NCBI GenBank assembly: GCA_964371155.1
Contig: CAYJLI010000005.1
Span: 1,675 to 65,674, forward strand
Source of the DNA: an uncultured Oscillospiraceae bacterium
GTDB lineage: Bacteria > Bacillota > Clostridia > Oscillospirales > Ruminococcaceae
Direction: 5' to 3'
Length of the DNA: 64,000 nucleotides
This document shows, one piece after another, positions 3,001 through 58,463 of this stretch (position 1 is the first letter of the stretch; every line of letters starts with the position of its first letter). A program made the translations under genes and the position numbers. The notes under the pieces are model-generated. The model was not told the DNA's origin. It searched no databases and saw only the letters and a list, made by a program, of their open reading frames with translations.

Positions 3001-6000
3001 GTATGGCAGGTATGCTATCGCAATATAGTTCATATATTAGGAACAGTGTTAATGTGCTAAATTCCTCAATAAATGCGACTGTAACAGCTACAAACGGTGC
3101 TGCAGGCGGATTTGCTGGAAGAGCTTATGCATACAATGGATATGGTGGTAGCAGTTCCACCCCTGTTCTTAACTCTGTTAATATCACCGACTCCACCATG
3201 AAAGGCAGTGTAAGTGGTACTTATGCAGGTGGCTTCTTAGGCTACTTGAGCAGTTCATATCAGGCACATGATGGCTCCTCCGAAACCACTGAAAGCGGTG
3301 CGAGAATGACAAATCTTGTCAACGAAGCCACTGTTACAGGTGTAAACGGTGCAGGTGGTATATATGGATATGTATATGACAGATACGGTTTTGATGACGA
3401 CGAAATTACCAACCAAGTGCTGAGTATAAACTGTGAAAATAAAGGTGCTGTAACAGCTAATAACACAAATGTAAGCGGTTCGCTTGGTGCAGAAGCTTAT
3501 GGTATAGGCGGTAACATAGTATTTAACAGTAAAAATACCGCACCTGTAACTGCGACATCACCATCAGGTACCTCTTATGCTTACGGTATAGCTCTTGATA
3601 GAGTATACAACAGCTACAACTCCTCCACAGTAACAGCCACATCGAAAAACACGGCTACGGCGTATATCATAAGCAGACCTGACGAAAGCACAGAAAATAG
3701 TAACGACAGCGGAGCAAGAATAGTTTATGGAACTGACAATACAGAGCTCCCTACAACAAACTACTATCTCACTTCTGCACTGGGTAGTGCACAAACTGTT
3801 TCATATGATGAAGCTATAACCACACCCGAAGCACTGCAAATAGCGTTAAACGATTGGGTGAATGAATATAAAATAGTGGAGCTTAACAACTCACTTATTA
3901 GCATGAGTGCCCTTGCAAACTGGCAAAATAACCCGACAGCAGGCGGCTACCCAATATATGCAATCCCAGCCACGGTAACCTACCATGCAAATGGTGCCAC
4001 AAGTGGTACTGTGCCGGTATACTCTGGGGCACAGGAATACACAGGCGGTGAGCATGTAATTCTTGCAAACAGCGGTAACCTCGCTAAAACAAATGCAATA
4101 CTCTCAGGTTGGAGCACAAGCCCTACCGATACCACAAATGTATATGCTGAGGGTGAGAAAGTTCCACTAACAAGCAGTGCGGTAAACTTATACGCAGTAT
4201 GGGGAATGGATATTTCCGATGCAGATGTAAGGGTAACAGAAACCTACACCTATAATGGCACTGTGCAGAATATAGACTACGCAGTATACGCAAATGGTGC
4301 ACTCCTCACAAAAGATACCCACTACACAGTGGAGAGTATTCACCTAAAAGGAGCTACCACAAATCTTTCCAGTATAATCGATGCAGGTAGCTATGAAATC
4401 ACCCTTAAAGGTAAAGGCATTTACACTGGTACACATACATTTGATTTAGTTACAGTAAATCAGCAGCTACTCACAGTGGATAGTGATTCCTATGGAACCC
4501 TAACAAAAATGTATGATGGCACCACAAATCCACCGACTAATTATGGCACTACAATAGATACCAATAACCCAGACTGTACAGTGGATGTAGATTCACTCAG
4601 CAATTACACGAGAGCCGATGTGGATTATGATTACAACCAAATTACCCTAACATTTGGCGATATCAATGTTCCAGCAGGGGAAAAGGCTTCAAACTACAAA
4701 ATAAGCTCAAATACCCTAACTCTACCGGCTGAGATTACACCTTACCTAATTAAATCGGTAGGTGCAGGCACAGTTAAAGTGACCAAGACATATGATAAAA
4801 CCAACACAGCAGGAGCGGCAACAGGAGCACTAACTCCATATGGCGCAAGCGGTGCAGCTACACCGACGGACGATGTGATAGTTAACTTTACAATAGGAAA
4901 CTATGACTCAGCAAATGTTGGAAGCGGTATTACTCTAACAGTAACTCCTACAACTTTAGGTGGCTCAGGAGCGGCAAACTACGCACTCGATTTAACCGAA
5001 GCAAGCACTACACTTGCAGTGGGTATCATTACAGCCGCACCATATCAGGTGAATATTTCACCTCAAACACCATCCATAAAAGCTGGTAGTGATGTGCAGG
5101 ATGTTAAAGATGCGATTACTGTTTCCACAGTGGGTGTTGATGGTGAAGAACCTATTGGTAGCATTGTTTACTACACAGATGCAAGCCGTGAAACAGTGCT
5201 AAATGATGCATTCATGCAGGCAGTTCGTGCAGGCGATACCGAAACTATCTACTGGACATATACACTGAGCAGTTCTCCAATCAATGCAAACTACAATACC
5301 ACCCCAAGAGAGGGCTCGTTTGTAATGAGTATCGTGGACGGTGACCCACAGATAGTTACTTTCGCTGACACAAGCTTAGTTAAAACATACGGCGATGGTG
5401 CATTTACAAACACAGCAACTGTTAAGGTAAATAACGCCCCAGTAAACGCTTCTGCAAGAACACGCTACACAAGCTCTGTTCCAAGCGTGGCAACTGTTGA
5501 TGCAAGCAGTGGCGAAGTTACAATAGTTGGTGCAGGTAGCACGGTAATCACTGCAGATGTATCGGCAGTACCCGGCGAATATGTGGCAGGTAGCGGAAAC
5601 TACGCTCTCACAGTCAATGAAAAGGATATATCCATCACAATGGATAATGCAGAACGTGAATTTGGAAAAGCAAATCCGTCCTTTACATTCACAGTGGATG
5701 ACCCCACATTATTTGTTGCAAGCGATGATGAAGCAGATTTAGCGGTTACCCCGTCCACCACAGCAGTAGCTACTTCAAATGTAGGTACTTATCCAATCAC
5801 AGCGGTTTCGGGAGCGACTAACTACAATGTAACCGTTAATGACGGTACACTCTCGGTTACTAAAACAGCACATACCAATGCACAAACAGCTAAACTTGTA
5901 AAATTCAGCATGACGGATGAGCAAGTAGTTGATTTAATGCCATATATTCCTACAAATGCAGGAACTATAACCGCCATGGATGTAGTGGAAACAGATACTC

Positions 6001-7878: not shown

Positions 7879-7890
7879 GTGTCTTATGCT

Positions 7891-8012
7891 ATTCATTTTT
7901 CAGGCTCCGCTTACTTATTTATGGGGCTTTGCCCCATACCCCACGATTTTTTGAAAAAAATCGAGTAAAACTTTATTTTTCGCTATTTTGCGTACCCCAC
8001 GGCTATCCCCTC
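7891..8012 (-). repeat. Mosaic intergenic repeat, copy 1 (B-end fragment + module A + tail), reverse orientation relative to the 51-kb and 57-kb copies
   Basis: 7921-7971 atggggctttgccccataccccacgattttttgaaaaaaatcgagtaaaac is the reverse complement of the 51-nt module at 51113-51163 and 57650-57700, and is co-oriented with 25504-25554. Flanks (ggctccgcttacttattt; ttcgctattttgcg) resemble module B pieces. It fills the gap between two convergent genes. Confidence 0.85.
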
Positions 8013-25156: not shown

Positions 25157-25584
25157 GTAGGGGCGAACCTATGTGTTCGCCCGAAAATCACCTGCAATTT
25201 TAAATAATGCAAAACCTCTGAACAGGCGATTACAGGTCGCCCCTACAACTATCTTTTTTGATAGTGTGTGCCATACTGGCGGTCATGGCAAGCCATGCCC
25301 CTACAATGGGATTTCGATTTATTTTAGATTATGCGTAACCCTCGGGCATAGCTCGCCATGCCCCTACAATTTAAAATCTGTTTCTCCTAATGCGAAACTC
25401 ATTAACTTTTCACTATTCATTTTTAATTTTTCACTCAAAAAAATCTCCGCTCTTTTGCTTCGCAAAATTTGCTACATTTTTTCTTAGCTTCGCTTTTTCT
25501 TTCATGGGGCTTTGCCCCACACCCCATAATTTTTTGAAAAAAATTAAGTAAAACTTTAGTTTTGGCTCCACTGTGGGATGGGGA
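25157..25584 (-). repeat. Mosaic intergenic repeat, copy 2 (largest): D, D-inverted, C, C, H, B, A, tail
   Basis: Module coordinates: D 25158-25184 and inverted D 25223-25249; C 25279-25311 and 25339-25372; H 25405-25436; B 25442-25493; A 25504-25554. All recur at other sites in the window (see findings). There is no credible ORF. Confidence 0.9.
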
Positions 25585-47342: not shown

Positions 47343-47349
47343 GGCAGTG

Positions 47350-47498
47350 GATAAAAGATGGGGAGCTGAGTTTAACTTGGCTGAGAGTCACCGTGAATAT
47401 CGGTGTAACCCTTAGACCTGATCCGGGTAATGCCGGCGTAGGAAGAATATTTAGTGTATCTTTCTTTGCTGTTGTGTATTGCCTACACAACTTTTTTT
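47350..47498 (+). promoter_or_regulatory. TPP (THI-box) riboswitch with an intrinsic-terminator expression platform
   Basis: Aptamer hallmarks: ggggagc, ctgagag, accctt and gacctgatccgggtaatgccggcgtaggaa (47360-47445). Terminator: gttgtgta (47471-47478) pairs with tacacaac (47484-47491), followed by TTTTTTT (47492-47498). Confidence 0.9.
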
Positions 47499-47520
47499 AT
47501 TTTACGGAGGAATTTTACAG

Positions 47521-48093
47521 ATGACACAAAAAGCAAAAAACAGAAGACTCACCGAAAGTGCTATGATGATTGCACTTGCAACTGTACTAAGCTTTGTGCA
47601 GTTTGCCGCACCTTGGGCTAATGGTGGCTCAATAACACTCTTTTCGATGGTACCAATTGCCCTCGTCGCCTATAAATATGGCGTAACTTGGGGAATTTTC
47701 ACCGGTATGACACATGGACTTTTGCAGATGCTAATAGGCATTGGTGGCCTCAGAGGAATTGATCTCACCACATTTATTGCGGCGGTTTTCCTCGATTATA
47801 TCATTGCATTTGGCGCTTTAGGCCTTGCAGGCATCACAAAAAATAGCAAAAACCCCAGCGCTTTGGGATTTGCAGCAGGTGCATTTATAGGCGGACTTGG
47901 CAGATTTGTTTGCCATTTTCTTTCTGGATTTTTACTCTGGGGCTCTATTGCAAACGACGGCTTTGCCGCAGTGGCATTCTCATTCACATACAATGTGAGC
48001 TACATGGGGCCTGAGATTTTTATCACCACACTCGGTGCAGTTTTATGCGCACCAATATTAAAATCTGCTATGGCAAAAACACAGCTTGCATAG
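47521..48093 (+). CDS. thiT: Thiamine ECF-transporter S component ThiT
   Basis: Start at ATG 47521 (MTQKAKNRRLTE) with GGAGG 9 nt upstream; 190 aa, ~6 TM helices, N-terminus typical of ThiT (LTESAMMIALATVLS). Sits directly behind a TPP riboswitch. Confidence 0.85.
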   Translation: MTQKAKNRRLTESAMMIALATVLSFVQFAAPWANGGSITLFSMVPIALVAYKYGVTWGIFTGMTHGLLQMLIGIGGLRGIDLTTFIAAVFLDYIIAFGALGLAGITKNSKNPSALGFAAGAFIGGLGRFVCHFLSGFLLWGSIANDGFAAVAFSFTYNVSYMGPEIFITTLGAVLCAPILKSAMAKTQLA

Positions 48094-49640: not shown

Positions 49641-51008
49641 TTATATCTTCATTAAATTTTCTACCGCAGTAATTATAATTTCCAGTCCATTAAGGAGTGT
49701 ATCTTTTCTCACACCCTCATTTGCACCATGTGCTGTACCAACAAAATCGGGATGGGTTATATCCCTAACATCGGGGCCAAATGCCACCGCTTTTGGGAAA
49801 TGCCTTGCATATGTGCCGCCGCTAATTGTATATGGGGTGCCGTCCTTGCCGGTGATGTCGGTGTAGGCTTTTGTGAGTGCTGCAATTTCGGGGAGTGTTG
49901 GCTCTAAATAAAATGGCTCGTCCATCATGATGCAGGCAGATTTTGCACCAACTTCCGCCACCGCTTTTTCTATTTTTTCTCCAACCCATGCGCCGTTTAC
50001 CTTTGCGGGGAAACGGATATTTACATTTTGGCTTATTTTTTTACCATCGGTTTTTATCATACAACCAACACAGCTAAGTGGTGTAAATACATCGTCCACG
50101 CAGTCCATGCCAATGAGTTTACCGCTTGTATCTGAATGTATTCTGCCCAGTAGGTCAAAATAGGCTTCGTCCTCTTTCTTTATCAGCTTATTATCTATTA
50201 AATATGCCACAAGTTTTGCAATGGCGTTCACAGTATTATCGGGGAATGCCGCATGTCCGCCCTTTCCGCTCGCCATAAGTTTTATGCCGTCGGCGGTTTT
50301 GCTTACTTTTACATACTCGGTATCTAAAAGATTTTCTGCCTCCGCCTTTATTACTGCCTCGGCTCTGTCCGGCACTAAATTTGCGGCTGTGCCTGCGTTT
50401 ATGCTGATGATATTGCTGTTTGGAGAGAGCTCTCCTATCAAATCAAATCCTGCAATCCCCTTTTCACCACAGCAGACGGGGAAGCTTGAGTCGGGTGAAA
50501 AAGCGAAATCCGGCGCTTTATTATTTTTTAAATAATGCACTATATCACTCATTCCCCTCTCTTCGTCGGTACCAAAGAGTGCTTTTAATGTGTGGGGGAG
50601 TTTTTCGCCTTTTTCTTTAAAATATTTCATCAGGTAAAGGCAGATTATCGAGGGGCCTTTATTGTCGATTACACCCCTGCCCAAGAGATAACCCTCTCTT
50701 TCGGTGAGGAGGAATGGGTCATTGTCCCAACCATTGCCTACGGGCACTATATCCAAATGGGTAATGGTGGCTATTTCCTTTTCGCTTTCACCCTCTATAT
50801 ATGCATAACAAACACGATTATCGCAGTTTCCCACTGAGAGCCCCATTTCCTGTGCCCTTTTCATCATGAAGTCAATCGCTTTTTTATTGCCCTCTCCATA
50901 GGGTGCATCAGCGGTGGCTTCACTTGCCACGCTGTCTATCGCTATCAGTGATTTTAAATCTGCTAAAAAACCTGCTTCGTTTGCCTTTATAAATTCTTTT
51001 ATGTTCAT
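49641..51008 (-). CDS. M20A dipeptidase (PepV/Sapep-like)
   Basis: 455 aa with motifs HLDIVPVGNGWDNDPF, RGVIDNKGP and GTDEERG, and a PepV-type C-terminal half. Confidence 0.85.
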   Translation of the reverse strand: MNIKEFIKANEAGFLADLKSLIAIDSVASEATADAPYGEGNKKAIDFMMKRAQEMGLSVGNCDNRVCYAYIEGESEKEIATITHLDIVPVGNGWDNDPFLLTEREGYLLGRGVIDNKGPSIICLYLMKYFKEKGEKLPHTLKALFGTDEERGMSDIVHYLKNNKAPDFAFSPDSSFPVCCGEKGIAGFDLIGELSPNSNIISINAGTAANLVPDRAEAVIKAEAENLLDTEYVKVSKTADGIKLMASGKGGHAAFPDNTVNAIAKLVAYLIDNKLIKKEDEAYFDLLGRIHSDTSGKLIGMDCVDDVFTPLSCVGCMIKTDGKKISQNVNIRFPAKVNGAWVGEKIEKAVAEVGAKSACIMMDEPFYLEPTLPEIAALTKAYTDITGKDGTPYTISGGTYARHFPKAVAFGPDVRDITHPDFVGTAHGANEGVRKDTLLNGLEIIITAVENLMKI

Positions 51009-51046
51009 ATGAGTATCCTCCTTTTTTTATGATTATAACATAGAAT

Positions 51047-51283
51047 ATAGTGAAAAGTGAATAGTGAAAAATGAAAAGTTATGGGGTTTCGCCGCCTGCG
51101 AAACAAAATAAAGTTTTACTCGATTTTTTACAAAAAATCGTGGGGCGTGGGGCAAAGCCCCATAAATGGAAAGGCGAAGCCGAGAAAAGAATATAGCGAT
51201 TTTTGCAAAGCAAAAGAGCGGAGATTATATAGAATTTTAAATGCTGTGGGAAATCCCATTGTAGGGACATGGGTTGCCCGAGG
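51047..51283 (+). repeat. Mosaic intergenic repeat, copy 3: H, small hairpin, A, B, C
   Basis: H 51047-51080 (atagtgaaaagtgaatagtgaaaaatgaaaagtt); hairpin gtttcgc/gcgaaac 51087-51105; A 51113-51163; B 51173-51232; C (reverse complement of the 25-kb C) 51255-51283. Confidence 0.9.
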
Positions 51284-57629: not shown

Positions 57630-57764
57630 AGTGAAAAGTGAAAAATGAAGTTTTACTCGATTTTTTGAAAAAAATCGTGGGGTATGGGGTGAAACCCCAT
57701 AAATAGAATGGCGAAGCCAAAAAACAATGTAGCAATTTTTGCGAAGCAAAAGAACGGAGATTAT
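57630..57764 (+). repeat. Mosaic intergenic repeat, copy 4: H, A, B; abuts a start codon
   Basis: H 57630-57649; A 57650-57700; B 57710-57762. Module B ends ..gaacGGAGattat immediately before ATG 57765. Confidence 0.9.
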
Positions 57765-58463
57765 ATGGAAAAAAATTTAAAAAAGCAATTAGATAATGAT
57801 TTATGGATTATTGTAATATTATCATTACTTTCACTGGGAGTTTATATTGTTTTTAACTCGCAAATTATGAGCATCGCAAAAGATAATACAAATCCTATTT
57901 TATTGCGAGTATTGTTGTTTGCGGCATTGCAGTTTGGAGTAGCAGGATTTGGTATAACTACAGTTGCAATAATACGAAAAGAAAACTTCTGCTCTTATGG
58001 GCTAAAAAAAGATAATGCTCTTATATCAATTTTACTCACAGCCCTTTGCTATATTCCATATTTAATATTTTCATTTACAACTGGAGCAATAACAAGTTAT
58101 CTACCTTTTCAGCAAGTAATAACAACAAATGAAGTACTCGGGGCCGCTTTTCCTATAAATGTTTTAGGTATTTTGATTACAATATTTTCGTGGGGTTTTT
58201 TTGAAGGTTTTAACTATGTTGTTATAAGTGATAAAATAAATAAATTGTATCCAAGCAGAAATCATTGGGTTAATTGGGGGGCTATAAGTTGTAGTATTCT
58301 GTGTATTTTAATTCACGGAATGGTGGGTGTCACCTCCGATGCACTGATTGAAATGTTTACAATTATATTCTTTATTTATGGAATGCTAATTGTTAAAGAG
58401 CGAACTGGTAATGCTTGGGGAAGTGTTTTTGTGTTTATCTTTTTGTGGAATGCATTCAAGTAG
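57765..58463 (+). CDS. Hypothetical polytopic membrane protein (about 6-7 TM helices), very AT-rich
   Basis: Start at ATG 57765 (MEKNLKKQLD) with GGAG 5 nt upstream. The 57708 start of the ORF track would read through repeat module B. No family recognised with confidence. Confidence 0.65.
   Translation: MEKNLKKQLDNDLWIIVILSLLSLGVYIVFNSQIMSIAKDNTNPILLRVLLFAALQFGVAGFGITTVAIIRKENFCSYGLKKDNALISILLTALCYIPYLIFSFTTGAITSYLPFQQVITTNEVLGAAFPINVLGILITIFSWGFFEGFNYVVISDKINKLYPSRNHWVNWGAISCSILCILIHGMVGVTSDALIEMFTIIFFIYGMLIVKERTGNAWGSVFVFIFLWNAFK

Follow-up and report, generated by a model that had tools for sequence, protein, structure and literature searches.

Four copies of a structured sequence, module A, lie in the window, the whole 64,000-nucleotide stretch of DNA analysed here. 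They occupy the positions and strands that had been predicted for them, 7921-7971 and 25504-25554 on the plus strand and 51113-51163 and 57650-57700 on the minus strand, and a degenerate 51-mer matches the window at these four sites only, with 0 matches in 100 dinucleotide shuffles. Copy 1 (7921-7971), defined by position search, fold and family alignment, displays the architecture on the plus strand: hairpin 1 (7921-7937, ATGGGGC-TTT-GCCCCAT), a C-run spacer (7938-7943), hairpin 2 (7944-7963, CGATTTTTT-GA-AAAAAATCG) and a tail, AGTAAAAC, at 7964-7971 that continues to about 7979. Family similarity around this copy covers 7887-7984, and the B module upstream of it is merely vestigial. The other three copies belong to larger units. 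A full composite element on the plus strand (25415-25563) comprises an H-type heptad stretch, a B module at about 25444-25503 (TTTTGC-TTC-GCAAAA plus a GC mini-hairpin) and module A copy 2. Two full elements made of B and A lie on the minus strand at 51105-51242, which contains copy 3, and at 57641-57789, which contains copy 4. On the minus strand, copy 3 is followed by a private hairpin and an H module.

Both predicted hairpins are present in each copy, with energies of −11.9 to −16.5 kcal/mol and z-scores of −1.6 to −4.1 when folded alone and compared with shuffled sequences; the minimum-energy fold of the 51-kb copy instead pairs GGGG with the second C-run. The paired substitutions, too, match the description: hairpin 1 has C:G as its inner pair in three copies but T:A at 57 kb, and the base of hairpin 2, CGA/TCG in three copies, is TAA/TTA in the 25-kb copy. 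The four copies are thus real, but the claim that exactly 51 nt form the unit does not hold, as pairwise similarity between copies extends over 84-149 nt.

Two of the elements lie near gene starts. At the B end of the 57-kb element the plus strand reads CGGAGATTAT-ATG (57756-57767); the repeat supplies a Shine-Dalgarno GGAG (57756-57759) and a 5-nt spacer ahead of the ATG at 57765 of an ORF that ends at 58463, and the listed start at 57708, inside the repeat, is probably not the real one. Downstream of the 51-kb copy, a heptad module of TTTTCACT repeats (51032-51061, minus strand) contains a TTCACT −35-like hexamer 18 nt before a TG-extended TATAAT, ahead of a gene starting at 51008. Judged from these motifs, repeat modules may donate promoter parts to genes.

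Organisation and distribution of the repeat

Module A is the core of a modular, non-coding intergenic repeat of about 130 nt. Read from hairpin 1 towards the tail, as in copy 1 (below, the forward strand of the element), the unit consists of one to four tandem copies of the B module (CTCCGCTCTTTTGCTTCGCAAAAATTGCTACA), a GGCTTCGCC mini-hairpin, and module A with its tail, AGTAAAACTTTATTTT. Tandem B arrays of one to four units occur, for example, on contig C5 just past the window and on contigs C79 and C75; on C75, outside the window, a run of N at about 5400-5480 lies within such an array adjoining a module A copy. Extra modules stand on either side in variable order: a TTTTCAC heptad block, a GTTTCGCC/GGCGAAAC hairpin and GTAG-type REP units. 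The ends of the element, ATCTCCGCTC... and ...GTAAAACTTTATTTT, are not complementary. Most copies are solo or tandem, and inverted pairs are few (C37 12839/13170 and several in other genomes).

The family has a common layout: first a hairpin rich in GC, then a spacer with a C-run, a second hairpin whose apex is a T-run/A-run, and finally the tail AGTAAAACTTT. The unpaired features conserved across genera are a YTYT loop, the T-run/GA/A-run apex of hairpin 2, the C-run spacer and a tail of the form (A/G)AAACTTT. The length of the spacer C-run equals that of the hairpin 1 G-run/C-run in 35 of 54 distinct sequences (2:2, 3:3, 4:4 and 5:5), and across genera the spacer tracks the hairpin 1 G-run with a rho of 0.67 (A4/A5 alignments, loci L039-L110). 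An alternative pairing of GGGG with the second C-run was considered as a general switch and rejected; it works for homopolymer variants only, not for those of the GAGG/CTCC type.

In another genus (G074, loci L113-L123) the module A tail runs into a conserved TTTCTTGACA-18 nt-TACTGT promoter-like motif, followed by a GC-rich hairpin with a GTAA tetraloop, and TTCTAAC heptad repeats precede the element. From its sequence features this arrangement could be a lineage-specific transcribed cassette. A general outward promoter past the tail was rejected: the best −35/−10 score is 7.7 against a genomic background of 7.6, and the TTGACA-18-TACTGT tail is found in one genus (g61) only.

The genome to which the window belongs comprises 2.45 Mb in 118 contigs at 38.9% GC. 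A sequence-only profile (nhmmer) run over the 118 contigs gave 72 matches to the whole element and 63 to the core, many of them at contig ends. No copy lies inside a long ORF save for two marginal cases, so that copies are essentially all intergenic. An exact pattern scan of species genomes returned many copies in one "uncultured Oscillospiraceae" MAG and a few in three other Clostridial MAGs; the former is the sister genome, about 94% identical to the window's genome. Counted with a covariance model built from the family, there are 61 copies in the window's genome, 64 in the sister, a single copy in another genome of the same genus (G001), 55 in a genome of a different genus (G036) and none in most relatives of the same family or order. 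A second model, built from diverse copies, detects the layout in 58 of 401 genomes of the order and 39 of its 179 genera, usually in multiple copies. The element is also found on human-gut metagenome contigs; none of these matches is close to the window's genome, and exact-protein look-ups for neighbouring genes, intended for strain-level comparison, gave no match. The family is one of gut Clostridia of a single order.

Searches of reference collections place the element in no known family. At the gathering threshold, Rfam assigns no family to any element in the window, and a permissive Rfam scan of five diverse copies places nothing on the element. The one Rfam match in the window is elsewhere, a TPP riboswitch (RF00059, 59.6 bits) at 47349-47462 on the plus strand, upstream of an ORF at 47479-48093. 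Plasmid and phage collections hold no match to the element, and a literature search returned no description of it. Nor is module A an intrinsic terminator: no terminator-like site covers the 51-kb or the 57-kb copy on either strand, and what comes directly after hairpin 1 is not a U-tract but ACCCCA on one strand and AAATA on the other.

Maintenance of base pairing

The original prediction took the paired changes to suggest selection on a single-stranded fold, of RNA or single-stranded DNA, and not the decay of a dead repeat. This is supported both by 89 copies from the window's genome and its sister and by the stems of other genera. Within the family, pairing stands at 94.7%. Among the 89 copies, hairpin 1 has CG as its inner pair in 53 and UA in 30, and in none is this pair broken. 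At the outermost pair of hairpin 2, CG occurs 42 times, UA 19 times, and AU and UG three times each; the second pair is GC in 62 and AU in 17, and the two basal pairs together occur as five matched types. The main exception to pairing is a subfamily with AAAAAACCCTG in place of AAAAAATCGAG.

Copies from more than 30 other genomes extend this pattern. Their stem sequences are unrelated to one another, as in CAAGCTTTT/AAAAGCTTG, CCACCTTTT/AAAAGGTGG and AAAACTTTT/AAAAGTTTT for hairpin 2 and AAGAGGC/GCCTCTT and CAAAGGC/GCCTTTG for hairpin 1, yet pairing reaches 97.4% and 98.8% in two cross-genus sets, percentages that are inflated because the sets were gathered and aligned with a structure-aware model biased towards paired matches. 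In these sets 12 and 11 of 16 pairs have changed on both sides, and the palindromes are plain in the raw sequences too. Neither among the 89 copies nor across genera are non-compensatory stem changes as common as compensatory ones, so the refuting outcome named in the original prediction did not occur.

A comparison of 21 orthologous copy pairs between the window's genome and its sister reveals how variants arise at individual sites. Core identity (90.5%) is lower than flank identity (94.2%). At about nine of the 21 pairs hairpin 1 has switched between C:G and T:A, on both sides every time; the bases of hairpin 2 switch as matched sets, hairpin 1 and hairpin 2 variants are swapped as units, and whole modules have been deleted, gained or replaced. 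At about 6% divergence these double changes are too many to be independent mutations; the variants form a small shared pool, carried from locus to locus by short-tract ectopic conversion. The pattern seen in the four window copies is thus mostly a shuffling of ready-made hairpin variants. The reading of paired changes as a sign of selection stands, with the nuance that within the window's genome they are mostly existing variants moved by conversion and not fresh compensatory mutations.

Conversion also makes the family an unusually clean natural experiment on whether base pairing is selected for, because neighbouring sites are randomised and pairing partners remain linked. In copies collected by a sequence-only search, the arms of hairpin 2 are strongly associated across 19 nt (Cramér's V = 0.84, p = 5e-40). 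Closer sites that do not pair are not: spacer and 5' arm (7 nt), 5' arm and loop (9 nt), 3' arm and tail (12 nt) and hairpin 1 and hairpin 2 (14 nt) all give V between 0.20 and 0.28, none of it significant. With all but the pairing partners randomised by recombination, even at shorter distances, complementarity is specifically maintained. Rare one-arm recombinants exist (CGA/TCA, CAA/TCG and TAA/CCCT). Complementarity could be kept by selection on the fold or by repair in which one arm templates the other; either way, the hairpin must form in the cell. For the maintenance of base pairing itself the evidence is unusually strong.

Strand, gene context and competing explanations

A replication-strand bias, one of the points raised by the original prediction, is absent: orientation relative to local GC skew is 22:18 (p = 0.64). 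This argues against lagging-strand mobilisation as single-stranded DNA of the IS200/IS605 type. Orientation relative to genes is a different matter. Of 45 tail-side genes in the window's genome, 33 converge on the element (33:12, p = 0.002), the converging stop codon lying a median of roughly 50 nt from the tail end, and in co-directional contexts the complement of the forward strand is the sense strand by 15:4. Such a gene-relative orientation would suit a role at the RNA level. In other genomes, co-directional orientation is random (17:15), which speaks against that reading, and the sole consistent trend there is towards gene 3' ends (12 convergent versus three divergent contexts). Over two samples, the terminator of a converging gene adjoins the tail end in 13 cases and the hairpin 1 end in 3, and many copies sit just past an intrinsic terminator. 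One lineage on metagenome contigs (L156-L181) has solo module A copies with no B module; in each the tail is 3-10 nt away from a bidirectional terminator hairpin, a different one every time, and in two cases the hairpin 1 end is 15-25 nt from the ribosome-binding site of the next gene. This arrangement suggests insertion beside terminators.

The two strands differ in their capacity to fold. With RNA parameters the complement of the forward strand gives the better fold in 22 of 27 copies, and with DNA parameters it does so in 26 of 27. Mismatches on the forward strand are more often A.C than G.T (21 versus 7), and an A.C there is a G.U or G.T wobble on the complement. The complement also carries GCGAAGC twice along with GCAAAGC, both with purine triloops, and GCGNAGC triloop hairpins are exceptionally stable as DNA (PMC13037366). 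Together, the strand and orientation data favour, though not decisively, a DNA-level or orientation-tolerant role over a dedicated RNA.

The explanation that best fits these observations, to which we assign a probability of roughly 60%, is that the non-coding, modular intergenic repeats built around module A as their conserved core make up an undescribed family resembling REP, BIME and BOX. The element would multiply within genomes, and short-tract ectopic gene conversion would constantly reshuffle variants among its copies. Use, or repair, of the element as a folded single strand would be what keeps its two hairpins complementary. That strand is more likely DNA than RNA, on our inference, and might be extruded during replication, recombination or copying; the relevant one is probably the complement, with its GCGAAGC and GCAAAGC-type purine triloops.

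The strongest competitor, though clearly a minority view, is a cis-acting structured RNA, in which the two hairpins, together with the G-rich linker, would act on the stability, processing or regulation of a transcript from within the 3' or 5' UTR of an mRNA, as REP, ERIC and BOX elements can. The orientations in the window's genome (33:12 and 15:4), the proximity of the tail end to the converging stop codon, the better folding of the sense strand with its tolerance of G.U-type wobbles, the Shine-Dalgarno sequence that one copy places against a start codon, and published BOX and REP precedents (PMC3049150) all fit it. It is harder to reconcile with the random co-directional orientation elsewhere (17:15) and with the many copies lying just past an intrinsic terminator; moreover, the loops are triloops of 2-3 nt, whereas tetraloops are typical of RNA, there is no match to an Rfam family, and copy number ranges from 0 to more than 60 among close relatives. 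Somewhat less probable still are functionless palindromes that correct themselves through quasi-palindrome template switching and conversion between copies, with no selection on the fold. Double changes at about nine of 21 orthologous pairs, too frequent at about 6% divergence for independent point mutation, are what this process would generate, as are a small set of shared variants moving between loci and the occasional one-arm recombinant. Self-correction leaves unexplained, however, the repeated expansions and the unpaired motifs conserved in 39 genera (AGTAAAACTTT, the C-run spacer and the YTYT loop), and a subfamily of about 10 copies with AAAAAACCCTG persists with its arm uncorrected.

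Mobilisation as single-stranded DNA by a Y1 (HUH) transposase, which would make the element a true REP/REPIN or an IS200/IS605 derivative, is improbable. A hairpin beside conserved single-stranded motifs, the lack of terminal inverted repeats, the inverted doublets of some genomes and a RAYT-like gene in the genome are all expected of such elements; so is the TTAC in the module A tail, which we take to be the IS608 target. That single RAYT-like gene (C115:111-650, outside the window; 179-188 aa, with HxH and Y motifs and a Pfam Y1_Tnp score of 27 bits) has GTAG-type modules, not module A, on its flanks, as seen in the sister genome (L011:3850-4840), where GTAG-type hairpin modules precede it. 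The gene and the GTAG-type C/D modules, to go by this arrangement, are likely the REP-RAYT pair of the genus. No GTAG stands beside either hairpin in alignments of 89, 22 and 39 copies, the motif being confined to the C/D modules next to it, which are units of their own. The presence of a Y1 gene also fails to track the copy number of module A: the genome with 55 copies (G036) has no Y1_Tnp, while G001 has the gene and one copy. With the absence of replication-strand bias added, RAYT/Y1 mobilisation was rejected for module A. Two further results count against the preferred explanation itself, a family of multiplying intergenic repeats. Neither the Y1/RAYT search nor inspection of genes bracketed by inverted copies, which are housekeeping genes only, found an enzyme able to copy the element. 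Comparisons with the congener G001 and between G074 and G319 recovered no clean pair of filled and empty sites with defined ends. G001 flanks are 68-78% identical with synteny mostly lost (an orthologue is about 70% identical), and one locus there has a 45-nt spacer against 367 nt of mosaic in the window's genome, without exact ends; G074 and G319 differ by 717 nt in a complex rearrangement whose junction lies inside another repeat. No target-site duplication was seen in these site comparisons, limited as they are to the diverged G001 and the rearranged G074/G319.

Least credible of all is a double-stranded binding site, whether a palindromic operator or a nucleoid-protein site, or a small ORF (MGLCPIPHDFLKKIE). 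Hairpin 2 is indeed a perfect palindrome of 18-20 bp with an A/T-rich centre, but between genera its outer positions differ freely without losing complementarity, and operators do not evolve in that way. An ATG...TAA frame is present in three of the four window copies; the ORF is nevertheless largely refuted and was rejected, since a stop interrupts the frame in the 51-kb copy, the CCCT subfamily has 1-nt indels that break it, and in other genomes it is lost to changes in spacer length.

Returning to the family of intergenic repeats, a bolder and more tentative proposal concerns its function: the layout kept in at least 39 genera may mark the substrate of a strand-specific protein or RNP, a REP-like partnership without a RAYT, or else a new class of structured RNA. 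Were the RNA variant true, this class would be widespread in gut Clostridia and would sit by preference immediately downstream of intrinsic terminators. A dedicated partner protein or a role as RNA, if there is one, would constitute a widespread and unrecognised feature of gut-bacterial genome biology.

Relation to known repeat systems

Interspersed hairpin repeats are well studied in Proteobacteria and pneumococci. No description was found for the uncultured Clostridia of the gut, which are dominant in the human colon. There, a family such as this one has practical consequences: it breaks assemblies (many of the 118 contigs end in the element), reshapes intergenic regions and occasionally supplies translation or promoter signals.

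The element looks like an interspersed mosaic hairpin repeat akin to REP, BIME and BOX, and not like a new kind of system; as they do, it lies outside genes, is palindromic and modular, keeps to certain lineages and undergoes rearrangement. Like REP, BIME and REPIN, it consists of short extragenic palindromes in tens to hundreds of copies that form mosaics with other motifs, gather at the 3' ends of genes and between convergent genes, and stand in tandem or, in a few cases, as inverted pairs. It is likewise lineage-specific and inherited at orthologous sites of sister genomes, and with 61-63 core copies module A is a short, high-copy extragenic palindrome in the sense used for REP. The REP/BIME/REPIN-RAYT systems are known from Enterobacteria and Pseudomonas (PMC3116915, PMC3337134 and PMC3686654). 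Unlike REP, module A lacks a GTAG-type foot motif and has two different hairpins and a conserved tail; unlike REP-RAYT pairs, it flanks no RAYT, and the presence of a Y1 transposase does not vary with its copy number. GTAG-type REP modules do share mosaics with module A, but as separate units.

The element shares its modularity with the BOX (boxA-boxB(n)-boxC) and SPRITE repeats of Streptococcus pneumoniae, in which an internal module likewise varies in tandem number (PMC3049150), as module B does from one to four. As in those repeats, the predicted fold is tight, the sequence is non-coding, there is no transposase of its own, and copies are enriched downstream of genes. The ends of BOX are terminal inverted repeats that pair together, whereas those of the element are unrelated, and SPRITE is terminator-like while module A is not. 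The element consensus is not known to resemble boxA, boxB or boxC, and the likeness to BOX is one of functional analogy.

MITEs such as Correia/NEMIS, RUP and ERIC are comparable in being small, non-autonomous, structured and intergenic, and in their capacity to donate parts of promoters or Shine-Dalgarno sequences. They differ from the element in having terminal inverted repeats, and no parent IS with ends matching those of the element was found. IS200/IS605 derivatives differ in another respect, as the orientation of the element is not linked to the replication strand. The closest parallels remain REP, BIME and BOX: short extragenic hairpins, assembled into mosaics.
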